A stretch of DNA of 64,000 nt from a virus. The DNA is taken from the IMG/VR virus record IMGVR_UViG_3300045988_114753; one strand, written 5' to 3'. The notes under the pieces were generated by a model. It made no database searches. It saw nothing but the letters and a program-made list of their open reading frames with translations, and was not told where the DNA came from. Both the position numbers and the translations under genes were made by a program. Shown in pieces: positions 11,322 through 62,363 of the stretch. Numbering within the stretch: the first letter of the stretch is position 1; each line of letters opens with the position of its first letter.

Positions 11322-11343
11322 GCCCTTTTAAGGGCTTTTTTTT
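11322..11343 (+). terminator. intrinsic terminator
   Basis: GCCCT-TTTA-AGGGC hairpin followed by T8. Confidence 0.65.
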
Positions 11344-11457
11344 GGTGCTTTTTTTGTTTTTAAGTATGCTTAAATATACATTTTAGCAATAAAACGGGGG
11401 TATTTTACAACGGAAAGCGAACAAGGGGCTTTTTTATAATGTGTGCTGCTCTTTTCG

Positions 11458-11572: not shown

Positions 11573-11734
11573 GATAATACAAGGCTTCTCAGTTTTACCT
11601 CCTCTTTACACTCGTGGCGTACTGTCCGCACCCCTCCCCCTCGTTTACAATAATATAATTCCTAAACAAAAAAGAGGCATAGCCTCTCTGTGACGAATAC
11701 GGGCTCATCACGAGCTCTTAGTAACGTGGGCAGT

Positions 11735-27258: not shown

Positions 27259-28092
27259 GTGGCAACTAAATATAAGAAGCCTATAAAAAAAGTTGAGGGT
27301 CAACAAAAAGTTATTTGTCAAAATAAAGATTGCGATAAAATGGGCAAGCACTTAAGTGTAGATGATTTTTATAAATCACGTAATGCTATGGTGCAACACC
27401 ATCCTTATTGCAAAGATTGTGTTAATAAAATGATTGACGTTAATAATTTAGAGTCAGTATATAGTGTATTAAAAGTGTTGGATACTCCTTTTATAATGGA
27501 TATTTGGAATGACGTATGTAATTCTGGTACAACCAATTATATGGGAGATTATTTAAGGGCTATAAATTTTACATATAGAAAAAAATATGCAGGTATGGGT
27601 TTTGACGATAGTATATTTGAATTATCTGAAAATGAAGAGATAAGTGATAATGTACAGGCTGCTTTTGATGATACTCCAGTTTGGAGTGATGATTGGCAAG
27701 GTAAATACACTAAGTCTGATTTAAAATATTTAAACGATTATTATAATGGATTACAAAATGACTTCAAAATAATTACTACAAATCATAAAGATTATGCTAG
27801 AAAAATTGCTCAAGCATCTTTGTCTCAAATGAAAGCATATCAACATTTATTACAAGGTGAAGAGGGTGCTGACTTGGCATATGAAAAAGCTACTAAAATA
27901 TTTGATATGTTATCTAAATCAGCTCAATTTGCTGAAAGCCAACGTGGAGCTAATGATGTTGCTTTAGGTTGTTTTGGTAGAGTATTTGATGCAGTTGAAA
28001 AACACAATTGGGTTCCAGAGTATATTCCAACTGACGAAGATATGTATGATAAGTTATTAAATCAATTCTCCAATATTGAGAGGAGTTTATAA
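27259..28092 (+). CDS. putative small terminase subunit (position-based), Cys-rich N-terminus
   Basis: Lies immediately upstream of and abuts the large terminase gene. GTG 27259 lies 6 nt after AAGGTGA (the ATG at 27253 has zero spacing). CQNKDC...CKDC. Confidence 0.45.
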   Translation: MATKYKKPIKKVEGQQKVICQNKDCDKMGKHLSVDDFYKSRNAMVQHHPYCKDCVNKMIDVNNLESVYSVLKVLDTPFIMDIWNDVCNSGTTNYMGDYLRAINFTYRKKYAGMGFDDSIFELSENEEISDNVQAAFDDTPVWSDDWQGKYTKSDLKYLNDYYNGLQNDFKIITTNHKDYARKIAQASLSQMKAYQHLLQGEEGADLAYEKATKIFDMLSKSAQFAESQRGANDVALGCFGRVFDAVEKHNWVPEYIPTDEDMYDKLLNQFSNIERSL

Positions 28093-44593: not shown

Positions 44594-47500
44594 ATGAATA
44601 AGGAATTTTACATTAAATTACAAGCGAAGTTAGAAAATAATGAAAAAACAGTTGCAGAGCTTAATAATCAGATTAAATCGCTACAAGGCAAAGTTTCAAA
44701 ATTACAATTAAAGGTTGACTCACAAAAAGTTTCTAAAGCCGATAAACAATTAAAATCATTTAATGATACAGCTAAAGAAGGACAGAAACAGGCTGATAAA
44801 TGGAATTATTCTTGGAGCAAAACTTTTCAATCGTTTACCACATATATGTCTGTAACAACGGTGTTCTATCAAGTTATACATACAATAAAAGATATGATTA
44901 GTGAAGTTACCGACCTTGATGGGGCATTAGTAGAATTGAAAAAAGTAACCGATTTAGAAGGAGAGTCTTTACAGAGATTTACAAAAGAAGCCTATGCTGC
45001 TGGTGCAAATGTTGCTAAAACTGGTACAGAAATGGTTGAGGCTGCTACATCATTTGCTAAGGCTGGTTACAATGAAGACCAAATTCTACAGCTTGGTGAA
45101 GTTGCTGCAATGTATACTAATATTGCTGACGAAGCTATTAGTAGTGCCGATGCCGCAGATTTTATTATTGCACAATTAAAAGCATTTAATTTAGAGTCTG
45201 ATGATTTGAACAAAACATTGGAAAATTCTTATCACATTATAGATGCGGTTAATGAGGTTTCAAATAACTTTGCTGTAAGTTCTTCAGATATTGCTACTAA
45301 TTTAGGTAAAGCAAGTTCAGTTATGGCGAACGCTGGTAACAGTATGGAACAAATGATTGGTTTAATGACTGCTGGTACTGAGGTAACACGTAATGCTAGT
45401 AAAGTGGCAAATGGATTAAAAACTATTACCCTACGTCTACAAGGAATGGACGATGAAGGAGAAAAGAACCTAGAATTAATGTCTCAAATGGAGGGATTAT
45501 TTAATAAGTTAGGAAAGACGGTTTATAATACCGACGGTACGCTTAAAAATACTTATGATTTATTAGGTGAGTTAGCAGATGTTTATCCAACATTAACGGC
45601 TGCTGAAAAGGCGTATGTTACCGAAACTATTGCTGGTAAGTATCAAGCACAAAATGCTGCTGCTATTTTATCTAACTGGAAAACTGCTGTTGACGCAACT
45701 GCCACAGCATTAGACTCGCAAGGCAGTGCTATGAAAGAAAATAGCAAATACCTGGATAGTATTCAAGGTAGGATGGCAAACTTTAATAGTGCTTTTGAGC
45801 AATTGTCTCAAAGTGTTATGAGTAGCGATTTGATAAAATGGTTTATTGATTTAGGTACAGCTATTGTAAATATTGCAAACAGTGACTTTGGTAAATTCTT
45901 AACCAAGTTTACTTTATTGTTTGTTTCAACAAAATCTGGTATTGTTATAATTGGAAAATTAATAGACACATTTAAAAAATTTGGAAAGTCTATATCTAGC
46001 ACTTATAGTGTTTTGCAAAAGTATAACGAACTCAATATCTTAACTAAAAACTCAACTAACGGTGTAGTAACCGCAGAAGAGGCTAAAATTTTAGTTCAAG
46101 GTAAGGCAATTTTGACTCAATTAGCCTTAAATGCTGCTATTGCTGCTGGAACAATTATTTTAATGGCTGCGGTATCAGCATATCAAAACGCGAAGGCTGC
46201 TCAAGAAGAACAAATTAAAAAGGTATCAGAGAATGCTCAGGCTTATGAAGATGAGGCTAGTAGCATAGATAATACTATTAAGAAATTCCAATCTTTAAGA
46301 GAAACATTAGATGACAATACATCTAGTTATCAAGACGCCTTGAGTGCAAGAGAAGAATTGATAGAAATACAAAAAAGTTTAAAGAAGGAATATGGCGATG
46401 AAGCAGATGATATTGATTTAGTAACTGGTTCTATTAGTGAACAAATAGAAAAGTTAAAGGAATTAAAAGCTCAACGTGCCAAAGATTATTTGAGCGATAA
46501 CCAAAGTGGTTACAATAACGCAAAAAAAGAAGTATACGGAAAGAATAATCATAGAAGAAATATGCTTATAGGCTCTGGTTATATTGATGTGAGAGATTAT
46601 GACTATGCCGTAAAACATAAACAAATGACCGAAGAAGAAGCTAAGGTATATAAAGAAAGAATAGCCAACGCAGAAAAATTTGATAAAGATATGCAGGATA
46701 TTTTAAAAAAATATTCTACTAAAAACTCTGTGAGGGATGATGGTCAAGGATTTATCAGTTTTAATACTAATAGTGTTGATAAATCTAAGAAAGCTTTAGA
46801 AGAGGTTAAAAAGTATCTTCAAGATAATGAAAAAGAAATTGTAAAATCTGGTATTATGTCTCAAGAGTCATTTAACTTTAGGTTGAATGAAGTTGATAAA
46901 GAATTAAACAATATAACTAAGAAATTTGGAGATAGTTATAAAGCAATAGAAGAATATGAAGACAAAATGAAGGACGCTGCTGGTTGGGAGTCTTTTAAAG
47001 GTAAACTTGAGGAACTATCTAAGACTACAGTTTTAAACAAAGATAATATTAAGGAACTATTAAAAGAATATCCTGGTCTTGAAGACGCTTTAAACAAAAA
47101 TGATATTACTATTGATAAGTTAATTAAAGATTTTCAAAATCTTAGTACAGTCACTGACACACTTATTTCTAATAACGAAGGTCTAGCAGATACTTTAGCT
47201 AATATTACTTTAGATGGTAAAGTAGACCAAACAGAAATGAATGAATTGCTTGAGAAGTTTCCAACTTTGAAAGAACAGTTAGATGGTACTGGTTATACTC
47301 TTGATGATATTATTGACAAATTCCCTGCCTTATTATATGCTGCCACAGGAACATTTGGTAGTATTATCGATGATTTGGATAATTTACAATCTGCATATGA
47401 AACAGTAACCTCTGCCTTAGAAGAATATAATAACACTGGTTATTTTTCAATAGACACGTTAGAACAATTATTAGTTTTAGACCAAAAATATTTGGATGCT

Positions 47501-49348
47501 TTAGTGGATGAGAATGGGGTCATTAGGGATAATACCTCCGCATTTCAAGTTTTAGCTAATGCTAAATTAGACGAATTACAGGCTTCAGAAGATAGCAGAT
47601 ATATGAAAGAATTAAATCGTCTAGCGTCTTTAAATGAGGCTGGTGCCGCACAGTTGGCTGCTAGTAGTATCAATGCACATAAAGACGCAATGGCTGGACA
47701 AGAGGTTAATGCCGAGGCTTTACGAGCTCAAATTCAAAAGAATATTGAGGCATTTAATGAAGAGTCTTCAGCAGCATTAAAAGCTGCTTATGATGTTAAT
47801 GAGGCTACACACAAAAGAAACAATGCAATCATAAACAATACCCGTCAGGGCTTAAAAAGTAATTACAAAGTTTCAATAGGTGGTTCTAGTAAAAAATCAT
47901 CAAGTAACAAATCTAAAAAATCTGAAAAAGAGTGGTGGGAAACTGAACTTGAAAAATTGAAAAATCAATTCAAGTACAATGAAATCACTATTGAAGAATA
48001 TATTAGAGGTTTAGATAACTTACTTGGCAGGGTACAAAAAGGAACAGATGCTTGGCGTAAAATTAATGAGGAACTTCAAAAGCAACGTTTGACTAAAGTT
48101 GAAGACGATTACAAACGTGGAACTATCAGTCTTGATGAGTACATTAAGAAGTTGAAAGAATTAATTAAGGCTTATAGACAAGGTTCTGATGCTTGGAATG
48201 ATTTAGCTGACAAAATCAAGAAAGCACTTCAAGATAAAGCAGATAAACAAAAAGATGATTTAGATACCGCTGAAGATGCTGCTGTAGGTATTATTGATGA
48301 TGAAATTGATAAGTTGAAGAAACTTAAAGAAGAGCAGGAAGATTATTACGATAAGTTAATCGATGATAAAAAAGCAGCTAACGATGAAACAGAAAAGGAA
48401 TTAGAATTAGCAAGACTTCAAGAGGCTTTAGCAAATGCTCAAAAAGAAAAAACTAAACGTGTATGGCGTGAAGGCATTGGTTGGGTATGGGAAGCCGACC
48501 AAGAAGCAATAAAAGATGCTCAAGAAGCTTTAGATGAGTTTAATAAAGAACAAGAACTAGACGCGTTAGAAAAACAAAAGGATGAAGCTATTAAGAATAT
48601 TGAAGACCAAATTGATGCTTGGGAAAAATATAAAGAGTCTTGGGAAAACGTTGCTGATGATTATGAAACACAACAGGCTCGTATGACGTTAGCTCAACAA
48701 TTAGGAGCCGATGCTGAAGCTAAAATTTTACAAAAACGACTAGACGTGTTAGAAGATTATAAATCTAAATATCTAGCAACAATGAAGGAAATTACTAATT
48801 TAGAAAATACACCTTCAGACAAGTTAAATGGATATAATACACCTAAAGATACAAATACAACAAATGGTAATAGTGGTTCAGGAGGTTCTTCTTCTAGTGC
48901 CCCATCATTAAATAAGGGTTCTTATGTATCAGTTAAACCTGGTACTAAATGGTATTCAAATTCTTATGGTGGTGGCAATAGTGGTACGGCACGTTCTGGA
49001 ACTATTAAATATATCAATAATGGTGGAAGCCATCCATATAACATTGATGGTTTAGGATGGGTTAAAAAGTCAGATATTGTTGGTTACAAGAATGGTGGTA
49101 TGGTTGATTATACAGGTTTGGCTATGTTACACGGTACAAAGTCAAAACCAGAATTTGTTTTAAATAATGACCAAATGAAGAGTATGTTGTCGAACTTTAT
49201 TAGACCACAAACATCTAGCAATCTTCCTTCAAAGAATGCAAGCGTAACAAATTATAATTTTGGTAATATTGAATTGCCAAATGTAAGCAATGCAAAACAA
49301 TTTGTAACAGAATTAAAATCTTTAGTAAATATAACAAAACATCAATAG
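44594..49348 (+). CDS. tail tape measure protein with C-terminal SH3b-like module
   Basis: 1584 aa. Extensive coiled coil and internal hydrophobic segments (LTQLALNAAIAAGTIILMAAVSAY). C-terminal KGSYVSVKPGTKWYSNS...HPYNIDGLGWVKKSDIVGY resembles the endolysin SH3b repeats. Confidence 0.8.
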   Translation: MNKEFYIKLQAKLENNEKTVAELNNQIKSLQGKVSKLQLKVDSQKVSKADKQLKSFNDTAKEGQKQADKWNYSWSKTFQSFTTYMSVTTVFYQVIHTIKDMISEVTDLDGALVELKKVTDLEGESLQRFTKEAYAAGANVAKTGTEMVEAATSFAKAGYNEDQILQLGEVAAMYTNIADEAISSADAADFIIAQLKAFNLESDDLNKTLENSYHIIDAVNEVSNNFAVSSSDIATNLGKASSVMANAGNSMEQMIGLMTAGTEVTRNASKVANGLKTITLRLQGMDDEGEKNLELMSQMEGLFNKLGKTVYNTDGTLKNTYDLLGELADVYPTLTAAEKAYVTETIAGKYQAQNAAAILSNWKTAVDATATALDSQGSAMKENSKYLDSIQGRMANFNSAFEQLSQSVMSSDLIKWFIDLGTAIVNIANSDFGKFLTKFTLLFVSTKSGIVIIGKLIDTFKKFGKSISSTYSVLQKYNELNILTKNSTNGVVTAEEAKILVQGKAILTQLALNAAIAAGTIILMAAVSAYQNAKAAQEEQIKKVSENAQAYEDEASSIDNTIKKFQSLRETLDDNTSSYQDALSAREELIEIQKSLKKEYGDEADDIDLVTGSISEQIEKLKELKAQRAKDYLSDNQSGYNNAKKEVYGKNNHRRNMLIGSGYIDVRDYDYAVKHKQMTEEEAKVYKERIANAEKFDKDMQDILKKYSTKNSVRDDGQGFISFNTNSVDKSKKALEEVKKYLQDNEKEIVKSGIMSQESFNFRLNEVDKELNNITKKFGDSYKAIEEYEDKMKDAAGWESFKGKLEELSKTTVLNKDNIKELLKEYPGLEDALNKNDITIDKLIKDFQNLSTVTDTLISNNEGLADTLANITLDGKVDQTEMNELLEKFPTLKEQLDGTGYTLDDIIDKFPALLYAATGTFGSIIDDLDNLQSAYETVTSALEEYNNTGYFSIDTLEQLLVLDQKYLDALVDENGVIRDNTSAFQVLANAKLDELQASEDSRYMKELNRLASLNEAGAAQLAASSINAHKDAMAGQEVNAEALRAQIQKNIEAFNEESSAALKAAYDVNEATHKRNNAIINNTRQGLKSNYKVSIGGSSKKSSSNKSKKSEKEWWETELEKLKNQFKYNEITIEEYIRGLDNLLGRVQKGTDAWRKINEELQKQRLTKVEDDYKRGTISLDEYIKKLKELIKAYRQGSDAWNDLADKIKKALQDKADKQKDDLDTAEDAAVGIIDDEIDKLKKLKEEQEDYYDKLIDDKKAANDETEKELELARLQEALANAQKEKTKRVWREGIGWVWEADQEAIKDAQEALDEFNKEQELDALEKQKDEAIKNIEDQIDAWEKYKESWENVADDYETQQARMTLAQQLGADAEAKILQKRLDVLEDYKSKYLATMKEITNLENTPSDKLNGYNTPKDTNTTNGNSGSGGSSSSAPSLNKGSYVSVKPGTKWYSNSYGGGNSGTARSGTIKYINNGGSHPYNIDGLGWVKKSDIVGYKNGGMVDYTGLAMLHGTKSKPEFVLNNDQMKSMLSNFIRPQTSSNLPSKNASVTNYNFGNIELPNVSNAKQFVTELKSLVNITKHQ

Positions 49349-49414
49349 GGTACCGACATTTATGTCGGTTCCTCTTGGTGCTGGATAAATAAAAAAAAAG
49401 AAAGGAGGATGTAT

Positions 49415-50878
49415 ATGATTTATCAACCACGTAATGTGCAACCATCTGGTTCTTCTATTGATGGGAGTATTAATAACACGTTTACAATGGAAGTTCAAAC
49501 GAACTCTTATATCTCTGCATATCAATTATTAATTGTTGATTTTAATAACAATGATATATATACAGGCACAAAGACTACATTAACACAGAATTTATATAAT
49601 GGGGATACTTTATCTATTCCAGTCAATGCTAGTAGTGTACATTTGAGTAATGGTACAAACTATAAATGGCGTGTTAGATTATATCAACCTAATCCCGATA
49701 TGTTAATTACATATGGGCTTGTACAAAGTGCTAGTACTACAACAAATGTTTATTTACAACCAAATATTAACATAAAGGCAGGAATGATACTAACAATCAA
49801 TAGTCAAAGTAAGACTATCACATCATACGATGTTAGCACTGGCTTGGCGGTAGTTGGCAGTGCATTTTCATCTGCTCCATCTGTAGGTGCACAATATCAA
49901 GTTTATTCTGATTTTATAGAAACAATTCCAGATTATATTGTATATGCCAGAGAAAATCCAACGGTTTCTATTAACAATGTGCCAACTTCTCTTACTTTAA
50001 AATATCATACATTTCAAGGTGTATACACGCAATCTGATAATGTGCCTATTGTGTATCATCAATTTGACTTATACATCAGAAATGATGATGGTACTAATAA
50101 ATTAGTCAATTCATCTGGAAAAGTTTATTCCGCTAATTTATCATATACTTATGACGGCTTTAGAACTGGTAACACATATTTAATTAAGTTGACAGTAGAA
50201 AATGATATGGGCATTATAGCAGAAACAGATTTATATACTTTTAGTGTTTCATATGATATTGTTGAATACTTGCAACAACCTAGAGCCGTATTTGATAGCA
50301 AACAGAATGCTATTGATATTGCTTGGGTGACACCAGTTGAACATAATGCTACATCTAGTAGTGGCGGTTTTACTTATTTATATGATACGCCTTATAGCGG
50401 GGTAAATTCTTTGTATACAAACGGTTATACAGTTGATTGGCAAGCACCAGATGGATTGTGTGTATTGCCAAATGATTTCAATATCACATTGCAGTTTAGT
50501 CCCGACTCTGGCTTTTTTTATGATGAAAATGGGGCATATAAAGAACGTGTAATACTAGTAGATACTGAAGTTGATGGCAATGGTAATTCTGGTAGGTTCC
50601 AAATTATAATTGATAAAAACAAGATTATATTCACACAACAACCAGATATATCATTAGAAAGCAGTTTTTATACAGATAAAACACAAACCTTTGTATTGAC
50701 AGACACTGGTGTTGCTCAAATAAATAGTGATTATATTTGGGATGATACCGCTACTTGGAATGATGATTATATATGGACTGAGGGTGGTACATCTATAGAG
50801 CGTGTATGCAATCACTGGTGGAAAGTTCAAATTACTAATACATCTATAAGAGTAGAGGAAATATTCCCTACGCAATAA
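49415..50878 (+). CDS. tail/baseplate structural protein (distal-tail position, 487 aa)
   Basis: First gene after the tape measure. ATG 49415 lies 6 nt after AAAGGAGG. Confidence 0.5.
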   Translation: MIYQPRNVQPSGSSIDGSINNTFTMEVQTNSYISAYQLLIVDFNNNDIYTGTKTTLTQNLYNGDTLSIPVNASSVHLSNGTNYKWRVRLYQPNPDMLITYGLVQSASTTTNVYLQPNINIKAGMILTINSQSKTITSYDVSTGLAVVGSAFSSAPSVGAQYQVYSDFIETIPDYIVYARENPTVSINNVPTSLTLKYHTFQGVYTQSDNVPIVYHQFDLYIRNDDGTNKLVNSSGKVYSANLSYTYDGFRTGNTYLIKLTVENDMGIIAETDLYTFSVSYDIVEYLQQPRAVFDSKQNAIDIAWVTPVEHNATSSSGGFTYLYDTPYSGVNSLYTNGYTVDWQAPDGLCVLPNDFNITLQFSPDSGFFYDENGAYKERVILVDTEVDGNGNSGRFQIIIDKNKIIFTQQPDISLESSFYTDKTQTFVLTDTGVAQINSDYIWDDTATWNDDYIWTEGGTSIERVCNHWWKVQITNTSIRVEEIFPTQ

Positions 50879-50894: not shown

Positions 50895-51746
50895 ATGTTA
50901 TTAACAAAATTAACAGTGAATAACAGTGTAAAATTAGACTTTCTTCATTTGGAGGAGGCTTCTTCTAATAATACTGATATTTTTAGTATTCCAAAATATA
51001 AGCCAACATTAAATAATGACTCGAGATTTTTAGCGACTTTTGATAATGCAACAACTACAGCACGTGGTATTGCAGACGTCGCTTTAGGTTATAATTTCTC
51101 AGTGTATAGAGAGGTTAATAATACAAATCAATTAAAATATATAGCAAGATTAGGTGAGGGTGCTTTAACTATGACCGATTATAATGTTGTTAATGACACA
51201 ACATATAAATATTATATATTTAAAGAGGACGAGTCTGCTATTTCTGAGGCGGTTGCTTCTAATAGTATTACGACTTGTTGGTGGGACTGGTCTTTAATAG
51301 ATTTAGTGCCAAGTACTACTGAAAAAGGATTGTATTATGCTAACCCAAATGCAATTTGGAAGTTTAATCTTAATATTTCTAGTGGCGGAGTGTCACAAAA
51401 TGTAAATAATACAACTTATAACAATTTAACACGATTTCCTAAAATATCTTCTGGTAAATTAAATTATGCTTCTGGCACTTTAACTTGTTTATTAGGAGAC
51501 GTACAAAACACAAACGATGGTCAAATCGGATATGTTGAGAGTGCTGCTCTTTTAGAGTCTTGGAATGATTTTTGTGCCAACGGAAACATAAAGTTGTTAA
51601 AAGACAGAAAGGGTAATGCTATGCTTGTAATGATTACAAGTACATCTTCTCAGGTCGATGATGTTTTGAGAGAACAGGTTAATACCATTACATTCTCTTG
51701 GACTCAAATAGCAGATGCTTCTAGTATTACTGTTATTGGTGCATAA
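50895..51746 (+). CDS. tail/baseplate structural protein (283 aa)
   Basis: GAAGGAGGA SD; position only. Confidence 0.5.
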   Translation: MLLTKLTVNNSVKLDFLHLEEASSNNTDIFSIPKYKPTLNNDSRFLATFDNATTTARGIADVALGYNFSVYREVNNTNQLKYIARLGEGALTMTDYNVVNDTTYKYYIFKEDESAISEAVASNSITTCWWDWSLIDLVPSTTEKGLYYANPNAIWKFNLNISSGGVSQNVNNTTYNNLTRFPKISSGKLNYASGTLTCLLGDVQNTNDGQIGYVESAALLESWNDFCANGNIKLLKDRKGNAMLVMITSTSSQVDDVLREQVNTITFSWTQIADASSITVIGA

Positions 51747-53011
51747 TGGCTAATTATAGTATAAAAGCTCTAGCAGACCAAACAAATAATGTTTTATGGA
51801 GTCAATATGGCGAAGTCTTACGTTTAGTAGATAGCTCTAGTATTAGTATGAGTTATTTAACAGATGTGTTGAAAAGACCAACTATAAAACCTCGTTTTAG
51901 ATTATTTGTTCTTAATCCTGATGAGACTATCAATTATGAAATTCCAGAAGAAGATATTATTATTAATTCTGGTAATTTTACAGAGAATTATCAGAATGGT
52001 CAAAGGAAGAGTGTAAACATAAATTTAATAAATATTGACGGAAAATATACGCCCAGCATTAATACAATATGGGTTCACGATAGATTTCGTTTTGATATAG
52101 GAGTAGAGTTTGATGGTCAGGTTTATTGGTTCCCAAGAGGTATTTATATCTTAGGTAATCCGAGTGCAGACCATCAAGACTCTGACAAACAAGTCAGTTT
52201 AACTTTGGTAGACAAATTTGCTGTATTAGAAGGTAAGGCTGGTACTTTAGAGGCAACTTATGAAATTCCTGTAGACTCAGATATTGAACAAGCTATTATG
52301 GGGATTTTAACGTTAGATAATGGGTCTGGTTATCCAATTGATTTAAAGCCTATTATTTATGATAGGGCTTTTAAAGGTTTGAAGATGCCATATACATTAT
52401 CTAAAGATGCAGGAAGCACATTAGGAGAAATGCTTTTAGAAATTGGTACTATCTTAAATGCAGAGGTTTATTATAATTCGCAAGGAAATTTGTGTTTTAT
52501 TAATATTAATGAGACGACGCTGGATGTCCAAAAAGCATCGTTATGGGATTATTCTGATGAAGATAGAAATTATGGTAGTGCTACTGCTAATTACGATTTT
52601 GAGAATGCCGTAAATGAGGTACACGTTGTTGGAGATAATATTAACAACGAGATATTTTCGGCAATGGCAAAAAATGAAAATCCAGTATCTCCATTATGTA
52701 TACAACGTATTGGTCGTCGTATTGAATATATCAACGACAGTAACATATATAGTGATGATTTAGCACAACAACGTGCCAATTATGAATTAAGAAAATTTGG
52801 TATCTTGAAAACTACTATGAATATTCAAGTATCTTTTAATCCACTTTTATTTGTTAATAATTTGGTAACAATTACTGATAAATACTATAATTTGGCAAGA
52901 GAAAGGTTTCTAATTCAATCAATATCATATACTATCGGTAATGAGTCACAAATGACCATAAGTTGTTCTAATATTGTCAACTTTAACCAGTACGCAAGTG
53001 GGGTGATGTAA
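51746..53011 (+). CDS. tail/baseplate structural protein (421 aa)
   Basis: ATG overlaps the previous stop; position only. Confidence 0.5.
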   Translation: MANYSIKALADQTNNVLWSQYGEVLRLVDSSSISMSYLTDVLKRPTIKPRFRLFVLNPDETINYEIPEEDIIINSGNFTENYQNGQRKSVNINLINIDGKYTPSINTIWVHDRFRFDIGVEFDGQVYWFPRGIYILGNPSADHQDSDKQVSLTLVDKFAVLEGKAGTLEATYEIPVDSDIEQAIMGILTLDNGSGYPIDLKPIIYDRAFKGLKMPYTLSKDAGSTLGEMLLEIGTILNAEVYYNSQGNLCFININETTLDVQKASLWDYSDEDRNYGSATANYDFENAVNEVHVVGDNINNEIFSAMAKNENPVSPLCIQRIGRRIEYINDSNIYSDDLAQQRANYELRKFGILKTTMNIQVSFNPLLFVNNLVTITDKYYNLARERFLIQSISYTIGNESQMTISCSNIVNFNQYASGVM

Positions 53012-53012: not shown

Positions 53013-53384
53013 GTGGATTTTGACGTAAAACAAATTGCTGAATTTAAGAAAGTAATAGAAGACATTGTAGACGCTCGTTTGAAGAGTTATGGTATTACTT
53101 CTTTTGTGGCAGCTGTTGTAACTAAGGTTAATGACGATGGTACAGTCAACGTTACTATACCACCTGATAATAGCAGATTTGTAAATAATGTATTAAATAA
53201 AAGTAATGAGTCGTTATCTACTGGCGACTCTGTTGAACTATGTACTAAAAATGGTAGATTATCCAATGCTTGGGTAGCTATCAAACACGGTAAAAGTGTA
53301 TCTGGTGGTTCGCTAGAAGACCGTGTAAAGTACCTTGAAGATAATGCTCTTATCTTCGTAAAAACAGGAGAATATAACGGATAA
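53013..53384 (+). CDS. small baseplate-region protein (123 aa), possibly an OB-fold spike-like protein
   Basis: GTG start after GGGGTGA. VTKVNDDGTVNVTIPPD...GDSVEL...NAWVAI loosely resembles gpV/gp5-type OB folds. Weak. Confidence 0.4.
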   Translation: MDFDVKQIAEFKKVIEDIVDARLKSYGITSFVAAVVTKVNDDGTVNVTIPPDNSRFVNNVLNKSNESLSTGDSVELCTKNGRLSNAWVAIKHGKSVSGGSLEDRVKYLEDNALIFVKTGEYNG

Positions 53385-53399
53385 AAGGAGTGAATTAAT

Positions 53400-53489
53400 A
53401 TGAGAAATTACTCGATTAGGGGGGGCGACACATCAATAAGATTGTTGTGCCCTCTAACTTTCAAGAGAAAGGAGGTATGTTATAGTTAA
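53400..53489 (+). CDS. 29-codon leader-like ORF carrying a G7 tract (remnant cassette 0)
   Basis: The only unit in the array with an SD (AAAGGAG, 9 nt upstream). MRNYSIRGGDTS... with G7 at 53419-53425, analogous to the Y-E-G-G-G position of the cassettes. Its stop lies in the loop of the following terminator. Confidence 0.4.
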   Translation: MRNYSIRGGDTSIRLLCPLTFKRKEVCYS

Positions 53490-53503
53490 TATACCTCTTT
53501 TTG
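53471..53503 (+). terminator. intrinsic terminator between the baseplate genes and the collar-cassette array
   Basis: GGAGGTAT-12 nt-ATACCTCT followed by TTTTT. Confidence 0.6.
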
Positions 53504-53528
53504 GTATAACAATCTTTGCGATTTTTTT

Positions 53529-54016
53529 ATGAATAAAGGCAAAACATATGTAAAAAATAGTCCCGTCCTTATAAATGCAAGTTCAATATTGTATGAGGGG
53601 GGGGCAAGACGCTTGATAAACTCTTTGATTTAGTTTATCCAGTTGGCAGTGTCTATATGAGCACGAACTCCACAAGTCCAGAAACACTTTTCGGGGGTAG
53701 TTGGACTAAGATAGAAGGTAGGTTTTTATGGGCAACTATAAATACACCAATGACCACAGGCGGCAGTTTTTCACATAAACATTATGCGGGCTCTTTAGTG
53801 GCTTGCTATGACCCTAAAAATAGTTGGAATAATGCTTCGTTTAGAGTTAAAGATGTAGATGGAGGATGGACTTTAAGTGGGTATATGGGTGAAAGTAGAA
53901 GTTGGGCAGATGGTGGTGGGGCTGCTGGTAGAGGAATAGAAGTAATTGGATATACATCAGATGACTGGACACTCCCACCATACTTTGAAGTATATATGTG
54001 GTATAGAACTGCTTAA
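53529..54016 (+). CDS. tail-collar-domain cassette 1, frame broken at G8 (53597-53604)
   Basis: Leader MNKGKTYVKNSPVLINASSILYEGG stops at 53631-53633. The body (track ORF 53657..54016) continues upstream in the -1 frame as GGGKTLDKLFDLVYPVGSVYMS. G9 or G6 would fuse them. Confidence 0.6.
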
Positions 54017-54032
54017 TAATGCGTCGAATTTT

Positions 54033-54499
54033 ATGATGGATTATGGAAAAATTTATTGTAAAGGTAAAAATGTCAATCTAAATGCTTCTCAATCTTATTA
54101 CGAGGGGGGGGCAGGACGTTAGCTGACTTATTGGATTTAGTATATCCAATCGGTTCCATTTATATGAATACTAATAATGTCAATCCCCAATCTATATTTG
54201 GTGGTGTTTGGCAAAAAATTGAAGGTAGGTTTTTACTAGGTTCTAGTGGCAATTATATTTTAGGGTTACTCGGAGGAGAAGCCACACATACTTTGACTGT
54301 AAGTGAAATGCCGAAGCACAAGCCTTCAATATTATTAAACACACAAGATAGTTATACTAGTGGTTCTGCTGCAAATTGGCAGGTAGTAACTAATGGTAGG
54401 TATTATGCTGGTGATATGTTTTTGGAAATTGGTGGTAGCCAAGCTCATAATAATATGCCACCTTATTTAGTAGTCAATATTTGGAAGCGAACAGCATAG
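54033..54499 (+). CDS. tail-collar-domain cassette 2, frame broken at G8 (54104-54111)
   Basis: Leader MMDYGKIYCKGKNVNLNASQSYYEGG. Body in the -1 frame: GGGRTLADLLDLVYPIGSIY...GGEATHTLTVSEMPKHK...GGSQAHNNMPPYLVVNIWKRTA. G9 or G6 restores the frame. Confidence 0.65.
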
Positions 54500-54508
54500 T
54501 CCGATTTT

Positions 54509-54946
54509 ATGACTAAACCTTATGGAAGAATTTATAAAAATAAAACAAACGTTTCTATAGATGCATTGGACTTATATAATGTATGGCCAGTTGGTTCGAT
54601 ATATATATCTGTCAATAATACGAACCCATCTACATATTTTGGTGGAACTTGGGTAAGTTTTGGTGCTGGCAGATGTTTAGTTGGTGTAGATACATCACAA
54701 ACAGAATTTAATACAGTACAAAAGACTGGTGGAGAAAAAAGACATACATTAACAGTAAATGAAATGCCAAGTCACAATCATCATTTTTTTAGAGGAACAG
54801 ATGGTACAAATTATTTTGGGGTTACTGGTAAGGAACCTAATGGTGGTAGCCCATATCAAGTTGATACAAGCTCTGCTGGTGGCGGTCAATCGCATAACAA
54901 CTTACAACCATACATAACAGTCTATATGTGGAAACGTACAGCTTAA
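54509..54946 (+). CDS. tail-collar-domain cassette 3 (intact, no poly-G)
   Basis: 145 aa. WPVGSIY, NPSTYFGGTW, GGEKRHTLTVNEMPSHNH and GGGQSHNNLQPYITVYMWKRTA, the COG4675/Pfam Collar pattern. No SD. Confidence 0.75.
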   Translation: MTKPYGRIYKNKTNVSIDALDLYNVWPVGSIYISVNNTNPSTYFGGTWVSFGAGRCLVGVDTSQTEFNTVQKTGGEKRHTLTVNEMPSHNHHFFRGTDGTNYFGVTGKEPNGGSPYQVDTSSAGGGQSHNNLQPYITVYMWKRTA

Positions 54947-54974
54947 AGCAAAGATTAAACTATAACGTAATATT

Positions 54975-55521
54975 ATGGATTACGGTACAATTAAACACAA
55001 AAATAATAATACGCAACTTCTTTCTCAATCAATCTTACATCAGTATGAGGGGGGGGCAGCGTAGTCTAAATTTAATTCTTGATAACATATATCATATAGG
55101 AAGTATATATATATCAGTAAACGCTATTAATCCCTCTGAATATTTTGGAGGGGTATGGGAACAATTTGCTCAAGGTAAAACTTTATTTGGTGTCGATAGT
55201 ACACAGACAGATTTTAATACTACATTAAAAACTGGTGGGAGTATGACACACCAACATTTTTATAGGATTGGTTATAGACCATATTATGGGGCACTTACTG
55301 GTGGTGATAGTGAAGCTATAATGGCGTATAATTATGGCACACAGTCTTGGTCAAAAGGTACCAAAGATGCTGGAATAGGAGCGAGTCCAGTTAGAAATAA
55401 AGGATTAACAGCCAGCTATAACGAAATTGATGCGGCAAGATATAGTGTTGGGGCTTATACTCAATATACAAGCACGCTTCCTCCTTATATAGTGGTTTAT
55501 ATGTGGAAAAGAATTAGTTAG
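54975..55521 (+). CDS. tail-collar-domain cassette 4, frame broken at G8 (55049-55056)
   Basis: Leader MDYGTIKHKNNNTQLLSQSILHQYEGG stops at 55062-55064. Body in the +1 frame: (M)RGGQRSLNLILDNIYHIGSIY. G7 or G10 fuses them. The ATG embedded at 55045 is in the body frame. Confidence 0.65.
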
Positions 55522-55535
55522 ACGTAGCGAATATT

Positions 55536-55986
55536 ATGAAAAATATTGGCGATATAAAAAATAAAAATATAGATGCTCTCTTAAACTCAAAGAATATTTA
55601 CTATGAGGGGGGGCAAGACTTTAAATAATATAATTTACCCGATAGGTTCGGTCGTTATAAGAGTTGACAGCCAAAACCCTTCATACTGGTATGGGGGAAC
55701 TTGGGAACTATTATGTCCAGGTAGAACGATGGTGTGTATTGACACCAATGATAGCGATTTTAATGTTATTAAGAAAACTGGAGGTAGTAAATACCTACAA
55801 AAACATCATCACGGTATTCCACAGGCTCATCCTTGGAATAACAAGACTAGTAACCACTGGAGTTTGTTAAGAACTCAAACTGAGTATGTCACTGAATATA
55901 ATGTGGATACTAGTGATACTGGAGATGGTAATAGTGGAAACTTGCAACCTTATATGGTCGTTTATATTTGGGTAAGAACAAAATAA
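55536..55986 (+). CDS. tail-collar-domain cassette 5, frame broken at G7 (55607-55613)
   Basis: Leader MKNIGDIKNKNIDALLNSKNIYYEGG stops at 55626-55628. Body in the +1 frame (track ORF 55603..55986, MRGGKTLNNIIYPIGS). G6 or G9 fuses them. Confidence 0.65.
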
Positions 55987-56001
55987 TTTAAAGTCGTATT
56001 T

Positions 56002-56521
56002 ATGAATAAAGGAAATACTTATAATAAAAATCAACAAGCTCTCATAACTTGTAACAATATACTTTACGAGGGGGGGGGCAACGTTAGATAGGATTTTATA
56101 TCCTGTCGGAAGTATTTATATGAGTGTTAACTCAACAAACCCTAGTCAATTATTTGGCGGCACGTGGCAAGAAATAACTGGTAGATTTTTGTATTGTACT
56201 AATAATAGTAAAGAACTTGGTGGTAGCAATACGACTGGAAGTACTGTGCTGGATGTCAGCCAAATACCAGGTCATCAACATATGGGAAGGAACTACTCTA
56301 ATAACTGGAATGCTGGAATATCTATACCACCTGGTAGGTCTTATGCTAAAAATTACGCTGGAGGTAATGGTCAATGGGCTTATAGTGCTGACCAATGGAT
56401 AGGTGGTAGTGAGATAAATGAAATGGTTGAAACAGGATTTACAGGTGGAGGTCAAGGACATACACACCCACAAAATTTACCACCATATTTTACAGTTTAT
56501 TGTTGGTATAGAGTGAGTTAA
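56002..56521 (+). CDS. tail-collar-domain cassette 6, frame broken at G9 (56070-56078)
   Basis: Leader MNKGNTYNKNQQALITCNNILYEGGG stops at 56089-56091. Body in the +1 frame: ATLDRILYPVGSIYMSVNSTNPSQLFGGTW. G8 fuses them. Confidence 0.65.
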
Positions 56522-56549
56522 TAATAAATACAAATAACGTAAAAGAATT

Positions 56550-57040
56550 ATGACTAATTATGGAAAAACAAAAGTTAAAGATTTACCTGTCTTAATCTCA
56601 GACAAAAGCATCTTTTGTGAGGGGGGGGCAGGTTATTAAGTGATATTATTTATCCAGTAGGGTCTATTTATATTAGTGTAAATTCTACCAATCCTAGCGT
56701 TTATTTTGGTGGTAGTTGGGAGCAAATAAAAGATAGATTTTTGCTTGCTTGTGGTGACACTTATAATAATGGTATTTTTGGAGGAGAGGCAAAACATAAA
56801 TTAACAGTAAATGAAATGCCAAGTCATAGCCACGATATGGATGAGGAGTCTTATGGTGGTGGAGGCTACAAAAATAAAATGGGTATTCGACAAGATGGTG
56901 GTGGTTCAAGCCATTGGACTCCTCAATATGCACAAACAACAAGTTATTCTACATATAAACCAACATATACAGGCGGTGGTCAAGCTCATAATAATATGCC
57001 TCCATACTTTACGGTATATATATGGAAAAGAACTGGGTAA
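56550..57040 (+). CDS. tail-collar-domain cassette 7, frame broken at G8 (56621-56628)
   Basis: Leader MTNYGKTKVKDLPVLISDKSIFCEGG stops at 56637-56639. The body frame is open from 56627: GRLLSDIIYPVGSIYISVNSTNPSVYFGGSW...EMPSHSH...GGGQAHNNMPPYFTVYIWKRTG. G9 fuses them. The track shows only the 3' part (56741..57040). Confidence 0.65.
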
Positions 57041-57058
57041 TATCACAAAACCGATTTT

Positions 57059-57544
57059 ATGGCAAAATCATATGGAAAAATTTATCAACATAAGAACAAC
57101 GTTTCAATTACACCTACAGATGTGTACAATTTATATCCTGTAGGCTCAATATATCTATCAGTTAATAATACCAACCCTTCCGAATACTTTGGAGGCATCT
57201 GGGAAAAGGTTTCTGGTGGATATATTTATTGTGCAAGTACATCTTTAGAGAAAACTAATTATTATGGCTGGGGTACTCAAAGTCATACACTAAATGTTGA
57301 CCAAATACCAAAGCACGGACATTGGGTTTTAGCACTAAATAAGAACCCTAATGGTTATAATTACAGTTTCAATATGGACTATGACTCACCAGGTGCTAAA
57401 TGTGCAGTAGATTATTCGACTACATACAATATTGATGAACGTGGCTGGGGAAATAGTGTTGGAATGCAAATGACTGGAGGAAATCAAGGGCATACTCACA
57501 ATATAGCTACTATAGATGTATTTATGTGGAAACGTGTTGCTTAG
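57059..57544 (+). CDS. tail-collar-domain cassette 8 (intact, no poly-G)
   Basis: 161 aa. MAKSYGKIYQHKNNVSITPTDVYNLYPVGSIYLSVNNTNPSEYFGGIW...GGNQGHTH...VFMWKRVA. No SD. Confidence 0.7.
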   Translation: MAKSYGKIYQHKNNVSITPTDVYNLYPVGSIYLSVNNTNPSEYFGGIWEKVSGGYIYCASTSLEKTNYYGWGTQSHTLNVDQIPKHGHWVLALNKNPNGYNYSFNMDYDSPGAKCAVDYSTTYNIDERGWGNSVGMQMTGGNQGHTHNIATIDVFMWKRVA

Positions 57545-57558
57545 AAAGAAGGGATAAA

Positions 57559-57975
57559 ATGGCTTTATATAAAGAAATCGTCGAAGATAATGGTGTTGTG
57601 TCAAAATATTTTAGAATTTCTAATATATCATTTAATATTGACAGCAAAAATATTTCTGTTGGTGTTAAAGAATATGCAGACAGCATTTATCGTGACAAAG
57701 AAAAGAAAATAAGAAAAATACAAGAAGATATTAATAACAGACAATCTGAAATAAATATTCTTAATGAAGATTATAGAAATAACGAAGAAGAAATATTGAA
57801 ACAAAACAAAGAAATGGCTGTTTTAGTAAATGAATTAAATGAATTAAATACTAAAAATTATTCTGTAGGTGAGAAACAGTATAATTTCGATTTTGAAGAT
57901 AAAGATTATTCTATGTCAGATTGTTATAATTTATTAAAAGAATTAGATGTATTTGAAGATAGTGTTGATGTTTAA
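57559..57975 (+). CDS. coiled-coil protein (138 aa from ATG 57559)
   Basis: ATG follows GAAGGGA. The track start at 57526 overlaps cassette 8. Confidence 0.55.
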   Translation: MALYKEIVEDNGVVSKYFRISNISFNIDSKNISVGVKEYADSIYRDKEKKIRKIQEDINNRQSEINILNEDYRNNEEEILKQNKEMAVLVNELNELNTKNYSVGEKQYNFDFEDKDYSMSDCYNLLKELDVFEDSVDV

Positions 57976-59907: not shown

Positions 59908-60051
59908 ATGTCAAAGAAAGAAAATATTGAAGAAGTAGTTGAAAATGTTGAAGAAGTAGAAGTTCAAACAGTTTTCAATGAGGACGGATTAGATGTGCTT
60001 TGTACAGAGGACACAATAGTAGAAAATATTAATGCAGAGGAGGGTGAATAA
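59908..60051 (+). CDS. small acidic protein (47 aa), below ORF-track cutoff
   Basis: AAGGAGGA SD 7 nt upstream. MSKKENIEEVVENVEEVEVQTVFNEDGLDVLCTEDTIVENINAEEGE. Fills the holin-endolysin gap. Confidence 0.45.
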   Translation: MSKKENIEEVVENVEEVEVQTVFNEDGLDVLCTEDTIVENINAEEGE

Positions 60052-60052
60052 T

Positions 60053-61156
60053 ATGGGTCAATTCACAGTAAGATATAGTCTTCCTGCAAGTGGAAACAAG
60101 TTATATAATAATGGTAATGCTGGTGGATGGTCTTGGTGTATCAATGGTAGCCCAACAAAATCAGGATTAAATGTCCTTTCAAACTGTGTTGGATGGGCTT
60201 GTTCAAGATTTAATGAAATTTACAACGAAATTACAGGTAATAATGGAATGAAATACAAAACATTATGTTGTAATGCTGAAAATTTCATTGAAAGAGCAAA
60301 ACAAGCTGGTCTTGAAGTTGGTATGACACCAAAACCAGGTGCTATTATGTGTTGGGAAAAGGGTGCTACTTTATCTGGAAGTGATGGTGCTGGTCACGTT
60401 GCTATCTGTGAAATAGTATACGACAACAATCACGTATTCACTTCTGAAAGCGGATATGGTGGAAGTGCATTCTGGAACTCACATAGATATAATACAAATG
60501 GACGTTGGGGTTTAGGCAGTGGTTATACATTTAGAGGATTTATTTATAACCCAGCCGTTAAAGATGAACCAAAACCAACACCTACTCCATCAAGTAAATT
60601 TAATATTGGAGATAAAGTAGTTATTAATGGTGCTTTATATAGAAGTTCTAATGCTTCATCTGCTTCAGGTAGTGTTAGCAATAAAATTACTAATATTACT
60701 AGAAAAGTATCTGGTGCAGCACATCCATACAATACAACTGGTGATTTAGGATGGATGGACGAGGCTTCTATTACCAAATATGAAGAACCAAAACCATCAA
60801 CTGGTCAAAAGTTTGCTATTGGTACTAAAGTAGTTATTAACGGTGCATTATACACTAGTTCTAATGCTGATAGTGCTGCTGGTTATGTAAACAATAAAAC
60901 TACTTATATTACTAGATACGCTGCTGGTTCTAAACATCCATATAATACAACTGGAGACTTAGGTTGGATGGATGAAGGAGCTATCACTGCTTATTCTGGC
61001 GGTATCACATATACAGTTAAAAAAGGAGATACTCTTAGTGGCATTGCTGCTAAATATGGTATGACTTGGCAACAAGTTTACGCTAGAAATAAGTTTGTAA
61101 TTGGTAACAATCCTAATATTATTAGACCAGGACAAGTACTAGTTATTAAAGATTAA
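60053..61156 (+). CDS. endolysin: CHAP domain, two SH3b-like repeats and LysM
   Basis: CHAP catalytic context NCVGWACSRF ... GHVAICE. Tandem repeats ..GDKVVINGALYRSSNA..HPYNTTGDLGWMDE.. (2 copies). LysM YTVKKGDTLSGIAAKYGMTWQQVYARNK...IRPGQVLVI. Confidence 0.85.
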   Translation: MGQFTVRYSLPASGNKLYNNGNAGGWSWCINGSPTKSGLNVLSNCVGWACSRFNEIYNEITGNNGMKYKTLCCNAENFIERAKQAGLEVGMTPKPGAIMCWEKGATLSGSDGAGHVAICEIVYDNNHVFTSESGYGGSAFWNSHRYNTNGRWGLGSGYTFRGFIYNPAVKDEPKPTPTPSSKFNIGDKVVINGALYRSSNASSASGSVSNKITNITRKVSGAAHPYNTTGDLGWMDEASITKYEEPKPSTGQKFAIGTKVVINGALYTSSNADSAAGYVNNKTTYITRYAAGSKHPYNTTGDLGWMDEGAITAYSGGITYTVKKGDTLSGIAAKYGMTWQQVYARNKFVIGNNPNIIRPGQVLVIKD

Positions 61157-61256: not shown

Positions 61257-62363
61257 ATGAGAAGGATATATTTAGATAATGCGGCGTCAACACCTCTTGA
61301 TAAGCGTGTTTTAAAAGCTATGAAGCCATATTTGACTAAAGTGTATGGGAACCCTAGCAGTGTTCATAAAGAAGGCAGAGAGGCACGTATGGCTATTGAG
61401 AAAGCTCGTAAAACTATTGCTGGGATATTAAATTGTAGTCCAGAAGAAATATTCTTTACAAGTGGTGCTAGTGAAGGTAATTCGTGGGTATCAAAAAACT
61501 TTAAGTATTATTGTACTGATAATTCACACGACTCGATGATGTTAGCAAATAATGATAACGAAGATGGTTTACTTTCTTATCCGCTATTAGCCAGTGAGAC
61601 TGGGGAAATGAGTTATTTAGCAAACAATTTTGGTCAATGCCATATAGATTTAACACAGGCGATTGGTAAGTTGGATGTCAATTTGTATGATTACAAGACC
61701 GATACCTCAAATGGCACTTCTTCAATAACGCTATATAATGATTTACTAGGATTAGGAAAGTGTGCCACAGCGTCATTTAGTGGACATAAATTTGGAGCCC
61801 CAAAAGGTGTTGGAGTATTGTTTATAAGAAAGCAATATCAAAAAGATTTTGTACCGCTTATATATGGGCATCAAGAAAATGGTTTACGTGGTGGTACAGA
61901 AAATGTGGCTGGTATTGTTGGTATGGCGGAAGCATTAAGAATAGCTATCAAGGAATTACCTAAAAATCGTCAACATATTAGAGAAATGCAAGACTATATA
62001 ATGATACACGCTAATTACCCCGCAAAAATAAAAACCGATAATGTTCCTATATTCTGGAATTGGGCAGGCTTTCGTTATGTCAGAGTGGAAGGACATAATG
62101 GTATTATAAACATTACTTTCAATCATTTGGACGCTCAAACTGCTGTGCAAATATTTGATAGAGAAGGCGTTGCTATTTCGGCAGGAAGTGCTTGTAATTC
62201 AGGTACAGATGAACCATCAAGAGCTCTTATGGCTTCAGGTTATGAAGAAGAAGAGGCGAAGAGAACTATAAGAGTATCATTGGGTAAACAAAATACAATG
62301 CGTGAGGTAAAGAAATTTATTAAAATATTACGAAAAGTTATTGACAATTATGACAAAGAGTAG
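61257..62363 (+). CDS. class V aminotransferase / NifS-IscS-like cysteine desulfurase
   Basis: [50 protein letters not shown] (PLP lysine context), LRGGTENV and SAGSACNSG (catalytic Cys loop). Confidence 0.75.

Follow-up and report, generated by a model that had tools for sequence, protein, structure and literature searches.

Phase-variable modules in bacteria and phages

Bacterial contingency loci, known from Campylobacter, Neisseria, Haemophilus and Helicobacter, carry a homopolymer early in the coding sequence, occur as many independent loci and give rise to combinatorial phasotypes (on/off patterns). The locus described here shares these features but is viral. It lies in IMG/VR record IMGVR_UViG_3300045988_114753, a 64,000-nucleotide (nt) stretch of phage DNA referred to below as the window, and consists of clustered paralogues of a tail-tip domain that form an operon-like array in a genome of about 31% GC. 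Six of its eight genes are interrupted by a poly-G tract, and slipped-strand phase variation of a tandem repertoire of putative receptor-binding tips is probably what these tracts provide.

Among phages, the closest described system is that of the Campylobacter Fletchervirus, in which two of four receptor-binding proteins are reportedly switched, according to work ascribed to Sorensen et al. (2021, Cell Rep 35:109214). Its poly-G phase-variable receptor-binding proteins are cited in three papers (PMC11959909, PMC12823448, PMC10877375), one of which gives up to four such proteins and places their genes between a recombination endonuclease and an antiholin (PMC10877375). A 2025 review calls phage-encoded phase variation of receptor-binding proteins an 'exceptional case', with only Fletchervirus known (PMC11959909), and a 2025 gut-phage paper likewise gives this system as the sole example. 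Fletchervirus resembles the present locus in its hypermutable G tracts within receptor-binding-module genes, in the frame shifts that follow from tract length and in its mixed phage populations. It differs in that two of its large receptor-binding proteins are reportedly switched, whereas here the tracts are found in six of eight genes and in an upstream leader. The proteins in the window are paralogues of about 150 amino acids (aa), each a single domain, encoded in tandem, with the tract at the junction between leader and head, where it is also a recombination joint. The phage itself is unrelated (c-st-like terminase, CHAP+LysM endolysin), and the gene neighbourhood is another one. No sign of homology to the Fletchervirus receptor-binding proteins was seen: among the 683 GenBank phage records that match the third paralogue, Campylobacter is not in the ten leading organism groups (21 smaller groups are unlisted, and the Fletchervirus receptor-binding protein sequences were not queried directly). 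Bacillota, the likely host phylum, are not classically linked to poly-G switching. New with respect to Fletchervirus are thus the phage lineage, the probable host phylum, the protein architecture, the multiplicity and the role of the tracts as recombination joints.

Other phages also hold alternative tail-tip specificities within one lineage, as do Mu and P1 through invertible tail-fibre segments (Gin/Cin) and BPP-1 through the diversity-generating retroelement of Mtd. These systems depend on a site-specific invertase or a reverse transcriptase, whereas replication slippage on a simple repeat would suffice here; neither enzyme was seen next to the array.

Eight tail-tip paralogues, six of them split by poly-G

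Three-frame translation of positions 53380-57560 reveals eight homologous plus-strand units between 53529 and 57544, here termed cassettes c1 to c8. The basic plan is a leader of about 25 aa (consensus M..YGKIY.K.N......YEGG), a G run and a head with the signature GG.TL....YP(V/I)GS...W(K/Y)R... Only c3 (54509-54946, 145 aa) and c8 (57059-57544, 161 aa) are uninterrupted open reading frames (ORFs) in the window; both lack the tract and, in the alignment, a linker of about 13 aa (YEGGG.TL....D), and c3 is always in frame. In the other six, a run of seven to nine G residues separates leader from head at the same position, around codons 23-26. The short leader ORF ends about ten codons past the run, and the head carries on in another frame.

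All six tract-bearing units are out of frame in the window, and one G more or less restores a full-length protein in every one of them. Cassettes c1 (53529-54016; leader 53529-53596, G8 53597-53604, then head), c2 (54033-54499; G8 54104-54111) and c7 (56550-57040; G8 56621-56628) require one additional G, and at G9 encode 162, 155 and 163 aa, respectively. Loss of one G is required in c6 (56002-56521; G9 56070-56078), which gives 172 aa at G8, and in c4 (54975-55521; G8 55049-55056), whose long form is read at G7 or G10. In c5 (55536-55986; G7 55607-55613), either one G fewer or two more are needed, for a long form at G6 or G9. The repaired products measure 145-181 aa over the eight units and 149-181 aa over the six with tracts, rather than the 125-165 aa of the original prediction, an earlier sequence-based reading of this DNA. 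It had correctly placed eight co-oriented tandem units 9-28 nt apart (16, 9, 28, 14, 15, 28 and 18 nt, leaders included). Since such gaps arise only when the leaders are counted, it had silently repaired the frames.

Conserved ends enclose a divergent centre. The motifs YP(V/I)GS, NP..(F/Y)GG.W and C-terminal PPY..VY.W(K/Y)R, listed in the earlier reading as shared, are common to the units in alignment A2, and the core of unlike length and sequence that it described is equally apparent: the central segment is unrelated between paralogues, and the scaffold is conserved. Identity of the paralogues to c3 is 34-47%. EMP.H.H, which had been ascribed to most units, is found as EMP.H.H or QIP.H.H in c2, c3, c6, c7 and c8, but not in c1, c4 and c5. 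The eight units therefore stand as paralogues but not as a fixed set, six being split at hypervariable tracts.

Pfam Gp10_C (PF21939) matches every unit at 47-119 bits against a gathering threshold of 27 bits, over profile positions 1-5 to 139 of 139. The E values range from 5e-12 to 4.5e-34 (c1, 5.4e-12; c2, 4.5e-21; c3, 4.5e-34; c4, 7.4e-23; c5, 6.7e-19; c6, 2e-19; c7, 7.7e-24; c8, 9.2e-14). This family comprises the C-terminal domains of T4 gp10, gp11 and gp12 (2fkk, 5iv5), and homology spans the head from end to end (YP.G.IY to PY..VY.W.R). In T4, the proteins are large (gp10 has 602 aa), single-copy and not phase variable, whereas here the domain stands nearly alone behind a 25-aa leader and is repeated eightfold. 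Adjacent T4 baseplate genes are said to carry related C-terminal domains, an observation attributed to Leiman et al. 2006. This homology makes the array a tandem set of paralogues that share a phage tail-tip domain.

The Pfam Collar family (PF07484), to which the units had been assigned, gave no match for any of the eight at E<=0.01, and none at E<=10 for c2, c3 and c7, although the filters of HMMER may hide very weak matches; NCBIfam gave none for c3 and c7, the two units scanned. The accompanying COG4675/MdpB label fares better, since the Joint Genome Institute (JGI) name 'microcystin-dependent protein' is attached to P0001, a protein identical to c3, and to its homologues P0002 and P0111, and since the motif style GG..H.LT..EMP.H.H is shared with that family.

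The six junction tracts are accompanied by a seventh, G7 at 53419-53425, in a leader element 5' of c1. These seven are all the G runs of at least seven in the 64-kb window, whose GC content is about 31% (27-35%), and all fall within 3.3 kb. GGGGGGG has 13 overlapping matches in the seven tracts, whereas 100 shuffles averaged 0.88 and never exceeded 5. As in contingency loci, a homopolymer of at least seven residues lies within the 5' part of the coding sequence in six units.

The sequence just upstream of the tract adds a third possible state. TATGAG precedes it in c1, c4 and c5, and TGTGAG in c7, so that an ATG or GTG sits directly 5' of the G run. At one of the two 'off' lengths this codon is in frame with the head and predicts a leaderless product. 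At the lengths found in the window, c4 (G8, ATG at 55046) would thus yield a leaderless form of 158 aa and c5 (G7) one of 127 aa. Gene callers annotate leaderless products in the related contigs L094 (a 158-aa gene), L108 and L113. A different arrangement, an independent head start 3' of the tract with the G run as its Shine-Dalgarno sequence, was considered and rejected for c1, c2, c6 and c7, which have no suitably spaced in-frame start.

Tract length polymorphism among assemblies

Tract lengths were compared in 24 array-bearing assemblies of the same phage, namely the window, one IMG/VR contig and 22 contigs from ENA or Logan, drawn from independent gut metagenomes of many unrelated studies and assemblers. 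Every tract has two to four length alleles, and the overall range is G6-G10. The observed lengths are G7 in two assemblies, G8 in eight and G9 in 11 for c1 (in frame at G9); G7 in one, G8 in 11 and G9 in six for c2 (G9); G8 in six, G9 in 15 and G10 in two for c4 (G7 or G10); G6 in one, G7 in six and G8 in 15 for c5 (G6 or G9); G8 in six and G9 in 14 for c6 (G8); and G7 in one, G8 in 11 and G9 in 10 for c7 (G9). The tract of the leader element, to which no frame is assigned, ranges from G7 to G10. For every cassette there is at least one assembly with an in-frame allele, and full-length products of 150-182 aa are called there. In total, 36 of 126 tract observations are in frame, near the one-third expected from random phase, and the 24 assemblies display 18 distinct phasotypes. 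Gene calls give a terminal cassette of 159-164 aa in 23 of these assemblies, the smallest array (L106) among them; that of L114 has 174 aa.

The tracts change far faster than their surroundings. Pairs of assemblies with one to three single-nucleotide polymorphisms in 3672 nt of flanking sequence differ at one to six of the six or seven tracts they share. All six indels that separate the window from L093 (99.72% identity over 10.4 kb) fall in poly-G tracts, and the only one that separates it from L094 (99.91% over 9.1 kb) is in the c6 tract. Control G5 runs are invariant (4/4 and 18/18 assemblies), as is one T7 run (23/23); an A9 run and two other T7 runs vary slightly. The length polymorphism far above background mutation and the toggling between full-length and truncated products that are seen here are both hallmarks of contingency loci. 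In a sister lineage from human and pig gut (L013, L117-L126), a single cassette carries an interrupted G6 (GAA GGGGGG AAG) that is in frame and identical in 10 of 10 contigs; in L117-L126 it looks like a locked-on version.

Homopolymer error in sequencing or assembly, with all eight genes truly intact, would account for six of six tracts being out of frame in the window. Length calls at G8-G10 are indeed more error-prone than other sequence, and the slight variation of the A9 and T7 runs points the same way. However, the tracts occupy homologous positions in all 24 assemblies, their lengths shift in both directions and independently of one another, the in-frame length differs by cassette, and runs of G5 and G6 are invariant. 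Error could produce neither the tracts themselves nor the recombinants joined at them (described below). This explanation is hardly credible.

A second alternative leaves the DNA unchanged and invokes programmed ribosomal frameshifting or transcriptional slippage on the G run, as in the phage tail chaperone G/GT. Runs of identical bases can be slippery for both ribosomes and RNA polymerase, and all six genes need a shift at the same site. Yet the direction of the required shift differs by cassette and changes with the strain, and in-frame DNA alleles exist for all six cassettes. RNA structure in 100 nt at each junction tract is no better than in shuffles (z from -1.7 to +1.7), so that no tract has a significant downstream structure. 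The unlike shift directions and unstructured junctions argue against ribosomal frameshifting, and the alternative as a whole is highly improbable; low-level slippage may nevertheless occur on top of a switch in the DNA.

Two of the other homopolymers in the region deserve separate mention. The T7 at 53522-53528, directly 5' of the c1 start codon, is T7 in 19 assemblies, T8 in two and T9 in one. An intergenic A9 at 49391-49399, just 5' of the Shine-Dalgarno sequence of the gene at 49409-50878, is read as A8 in 11 and A9 in two of the 13 scored assemblies.

Selection on tracts and heads

The G runs stand out against codon usage in the rest of the window. Outside the array, GGG makes up 6% of Gly codons, and GGG-GGG encodes none of 28 Gly-Gly pairs. 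Within the heads, none of 27 Gly-Gly(-Gly) runs is encoded by consecutive GGG codons, and none contains a long G run. The junction nevertheless retains its tract in paralogues with no more than 34-47% identity to c3 and in relatives at about 76% nucleotide identity (L003, L009). The tracts are selected, not incidental.

The heads are also maintained. In AT-rich DNA, head frames of 126-158 codons remain open, with no stop, in 14 of 14 assemblies examined. Polymorphic codons among orthologues comprise 45 non-synonymous and 52 synonymous ones, for a ratio of non-synonymous to synonymous polymorphism (pN/pS) of about 0.3 that takes in the mostly-off c4 and c5. The heads are under purifying selection. 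In the core, which the original prediction proposed as the ligand-contacting part, orthologue polymorphism shows no positive selection, and changes are not clearly clustered.

These data bear on a third alternative, namely that the duplicated tip genes are decaying pseudogenes inactivated at homopolymers and that only c3 and c8 function. In its favour, the window has all six tract cassettes out of frame, most assemblies have c4, c5 and c6 in that state, and one relative (L002) lacks the whole module. The open heads and the low pN/pS, c4 and c5 included, argue against it, as do the in-frame state of each cassette in some assembly and the retention of the tracts over deep divergence despite strong avoidance of GGG codons elsewhere. 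Decay is very unlikely, and phase variation remains the favoured reading of the tracts.

Recombination at the tracts and origin of the array

The tracts also mark the sites at which cassettes have been rejoined. Four hybrids are joined exactly at the tract, their left 90 nt being 99-100% identical to one unit and their right 127-200 nt 91-95% identical to another. In L102, a c1 leader is joined to a c2 head and a c5 leader to a c7 head; the leader element 5' of c1 is joined to a c7 head in L106 and to a c1 head in L110. In L001, a hybrid replaces the c1-c3 region and leaves one unit fewer. The number of units in relatives ranges from zero to eight: none in L002, one in L004, L013 and L117-L126, two in L005 and L006, four in L003, and five to eight tract-bearing or terminal units in the other assemblies. 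The single head of L013 is of the c4 type.

The array is preceded by a gene for a 123-aa protein (53013-53384, plus strand), which is probably the N-terminal anchor domain of the module, to judge from two sequence comparisons. Its C-terminal tail (KYLEDNALIFVKTGEYNG) aligns with the cassette leaders. Furthermore, in L004, a relative at about 85%, its orthologue is fused in frame to a single Gp10_C head in a 286-aa protein without poly-G (11262-12119). This fusion likely represents the ancestral architecture, in which anchor domain, linker and head formed one chain. The head would then have been split from the anchor gene and multiplied, with each copy keeping a piece of the linker as its leader. 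The 123-aa protein has no match in Pfam, PHROG or NCBIfam; an identical protein (P0121) occurs in 190 contigs and 346 index blocks of the collection. In L002 (11260-11760; flanks 94-97% identical), a clean deletion of window positions 53057-57975 takes out the greater part of the 123-aa gene, the entire array and the next gene, which encodes a 138-aa coiled-coil protein (57559-57975, plus strand). Pfam matches of this protein are weak and confined to coiled coils; it is missing from L003 and L004 and may be an accessory or assembly factor of the module.

The association of tracts with multiplied cassettes extends beyond this lineage. A scan of IMG/VR with the cassette alignment recovered 483 relatives. 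A G or C run of at least seven was present in nine of nine loci with three or more cassettes but in two of 82 with fewer, a comparison that covers the viral and genome-collection loci fetched up to that point, not all of them phylogenetically independent. Roughly five or six lineages are represented (the L001/L003 group, L020/L066, L021, L044, L054/L061 and L057), and one of three tract lengths differs between L020 and L066. An exact-pattern scan of IMG/VR for the c4 junction found no contig beyond one already in the set. The array DNA has no relative among GenBank phages in searches for near and distant matches, which returned only stretches of about 70-150 nt from Streptococcus and Lactobacillus phages.

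Heads as candidate receptor-binding tips

Several lines of comparison point to the tail tip. In the PDB, unit profiles have their best match in the C-terminal domain of T4 gp10 (2fkk; E 1.7e-11 with alignment A2 and 2.2e-14 with A3); Klebsiella phage KP1 gp10 and 7z47_I, a 'putative structural protein' of 267 aa, are also found. PHROG matches fall at the C-terminal ends of tail, tail-fibre and baseplate-wedge families. Homologues of c3 occupy 751 matching places in 683 GenBank phage records, and the domain is thus nearly always single-copy in these phages. In Streptococcus prophage Javan3, it forms the last ~140 aa of a 618-aa structural protein encoded between tail endopeptidase and holin, the usual place of a receptor-binding protein. 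The structural model asked of AlphaFold2 by the original prediction was mediocre for c3 (63-sequence alignment; predicted local distance difference test score (pLDDT) 69, predicted template modelling score (pTM) 0.50): confidence is confined to the conserved blocks at the N and C termini, the leader and variable core are poorly predicted, and a Foldseek search with it against the PDB returned only T4 and KP1 gp10, at low TM-scores.

Heads resembling c3 also occur outside the gut. Many short environmental viral contigs (L022-L040 and others) carry a single c3-like gene (about 55% identity over residues 22-144) without a leader, which indicates that the head domain is widespread beyond gut phages.

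In other phages, the Gp10_C domain is the distal C-terminal tip of tail fibres and baseplate proteins. The cassette proteins would be carried on the virion, with the leader as a docking peptide and the head as a putative receptor-binding tip. The switch could alternatively be real and act on proteins that are not receptor-binding tips, such as structural or decoration subunits of the baseplate or intracellular proteins. T4 gp10, the one homologue with a solved structure, has a structural role in the baseplate, and MdpB-like proteins are also found in bacteria without a phage context. On the other hand, the domain typically closes tail-fibre and tail proteins at their C terminus and takes the receptor-binding-protein position in streptococcal prophages, the core differs wholly between paralogues within a conserved scaffold, and phase variation usually affects determinants of surface interaction. 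A function other than receptor binding is therefore unlikely, though less remote than the explanations that dispense with a switch. The repertoire of alternative tips put forward in the original prediction remains plausible for tandem tail-tip paralogues with a divergent core, but not as a fixed set, six units being probably phase-switched.

Under the favoured reading, slipped-strand mispairing at replication would add or drop a G at high frequency, and switching inside one population would be rapid and reversible. Each gene would toggle independently between a full-length protein, a truncated leader peptide of 30-45 aa and, in c1, c4, c5 and c7, a leaderless head. A phage population could thereby hold up to 2^6 combinations of optional tips in addition to two constant tips (c3 and c8), which may serve as bet-hedging over host receptors. 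In addition, the tracts and their conserved flanks (GA-Gn-CA) are crossover points at which units are deleted, leaders are re-paired with heads, and the array expands, shrinks or is reshuffled.

A number of observations weigh against this reading. T4 gp10 itself is not a receptor binder. Cassettes c4, c5 and c6 are out of frame in the majority of assemblies. The deletion in L002 implies that the entire module is dispensable. Tract lengths represent one consensus per assembly, and homopolymer length calls carry some error. The host is placed only as a probable Gram-positive, so that no tie to a phase-variable receptor can be drawn. Finally, none of the eight cassette ATGs has a Shine-Dalgarno sequence, though most other genes in the window carry one of the GGAGG type, a pattern suggestive of coupled translation along the array, through which an OFF unit could exert polarity on its downstream neighbour.

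If the reading holds, the locus suggests that the Fletchervirus-type principle evolved independently, or spread, in a gut phage common in human and pig metagenomes. It would be a rare case of a virus that uses bacterial-style phase variation, each gene apparently switching independently. The switch would also be far more elaborate: six tip genes and one leader are switched, at least 18 phasotypes are observed, and the tracts recombine as well. Should the tips bind receptors, one phage genotype would sample dozens of adsorption specificities, with a bearing on the persistence of gut phages beside surface-variable hosts and on the engineering of phages whose host range can be tuned. The phenomenon also matters for the prediction of host range from genomes, since such genes are split or truncated by gene callers. 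Tract lengths can be read from existing metagenomic reads, which makes switching directly testable.

The leader element upstream of c1

The leader element (53385-53510, plus strand) comprises a Shine-Dalgarno sequence, an upstream ORF (uORF), the G7 tract and two hairpins, A and B. The uORF (53400-53489) has 29 codons and its own strong Shine-Dalgarno sequence. Hairpin A (53416-53457) has the G7 tract (53419-53425) as its 5' arm, paired with a downstream CCCUCU. Hairpin B (53469-53500) has 14-16 bp; its AAGGAGG-bearing 5' arm is AAAGGAGG, its 3' arm runs into a U tract, and it looks like a terminator. The fold of the element has a z-score of -5.6, and none of 200 shuffles folds as well. The uORF extends into hairpin B when the tract is G7 or G8, and at G9 its stop falls in the hairpin A loop. 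In L001, L003, L009, L013 and L093, the element shows high conservation, above that of its surroundings. Among six relatives, one-sided compatible changes were found but no compensatory pairs. Promoter and intrinsic-terminator scans across the array yielded nothing above shuffled expectation and did not flag hairpin B.

The original prediction counted a remnant besides the eight units, which corresponds to 53400-53489. The 29-codon ORF with its Shine-Dalgarno sequence and G7 is present there, but the element does not match the profile of the eight cassettes. A like two-hairpin layout with a Shine-Dalgarno sequence and short uORF, built from other sequences, recurs at poly-G tracts 5' of or between cassettes in at least five other lineages of gut phages, namely in L020 (3850-4260), L021 (4840-4989), L044 (2660-3150 and 5800-5930), L054 (2880-3029 and 3850-3999) and L057 (5290-5410). 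In these five lineages, the fold has z-scores of -1.7 to -5.5, most of them at or below -2.9, and the AAGGAGG 5' arm of the second hairpin is often followed by a U-run.

Two readings of the element can be offered. In one, it would gate the array as a phase-variable attenuator or coupling device; the cassette ATGs of the array share a preceding CG(A/T)A(T)TTT. In the other, tract-to-tract deletions would have left such elements behind as solo leaders; joining of the element to a head does occur, as in the L106 and L110 fusions. A wider, tentative proposal, possible but doubtful at present, is that the tracts operate at three levels: as switches between on, leaderless and off states, as recombination joints, and as part of a uORF/hairpin attenuator gating an array without Shine-Dalgarno sequences. 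If true, the attenuator would be a new cis-regulatory kind that couples a hypermutable repeat to leader-peptide translation.

Genomic setting and host

The window is the structural half of a large tailed phage. Its terminase (28092-29852) is 54% identical to that of Clostridium phage c-st and about 29% identical to those of SPbeta-like phages; it is followed by the portal (29870-31465), a 1584-aa tape measure protein (44594-49348) and a DUF5048 tail protein (51746-53011). After the array come three further small or medium proteins and then an endolysin-like gene (60032-61156). The array accordingly has the tape-measure and distal-tail genes on its 5' side and the lysis genes on its 3' side. 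The phage, uncultured and about 110 kb in size, belongs to a set of contigs that cluster at 105-114 kb and come from human gut (many studies) and pig gut.

In relatives, the endolysin is of the CHAP+LysM type, which suggests a Gram-positive host. The host is thus probably Gram-positive, and its phylum is likely Bacillota. Related contigs are found in metagenome-assembled genomes labelled Ca. Coprovivens, Clostridia, Bacilli and even Proteobacteria, labels that are probably binning artefacts.

Four minor observations concern the rest of the window. No tRNA genes were found in its 64 kb. Just after the endolysin lies a 368-aa gene (61257-62363) whose orthologue in relatives is annotated as Pfam Aminotran_5 (PF00266, class V aminotransferase / cysteine desulfurase type) and which may be an auxiliary metabolic gene. 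Within the endolysin-like gene itself, two segments of about 200 nt (60563-60762 and 60782-60975) are about 75% identical and are probably tandem cell-wall-binding repeats of the LysM type. Over positions 1-10000, GC and AT skew are strongly negative and many small ORFs lie on the minus strand; the signs flip near 10-12 kb, which marks a divergent early-gene block.

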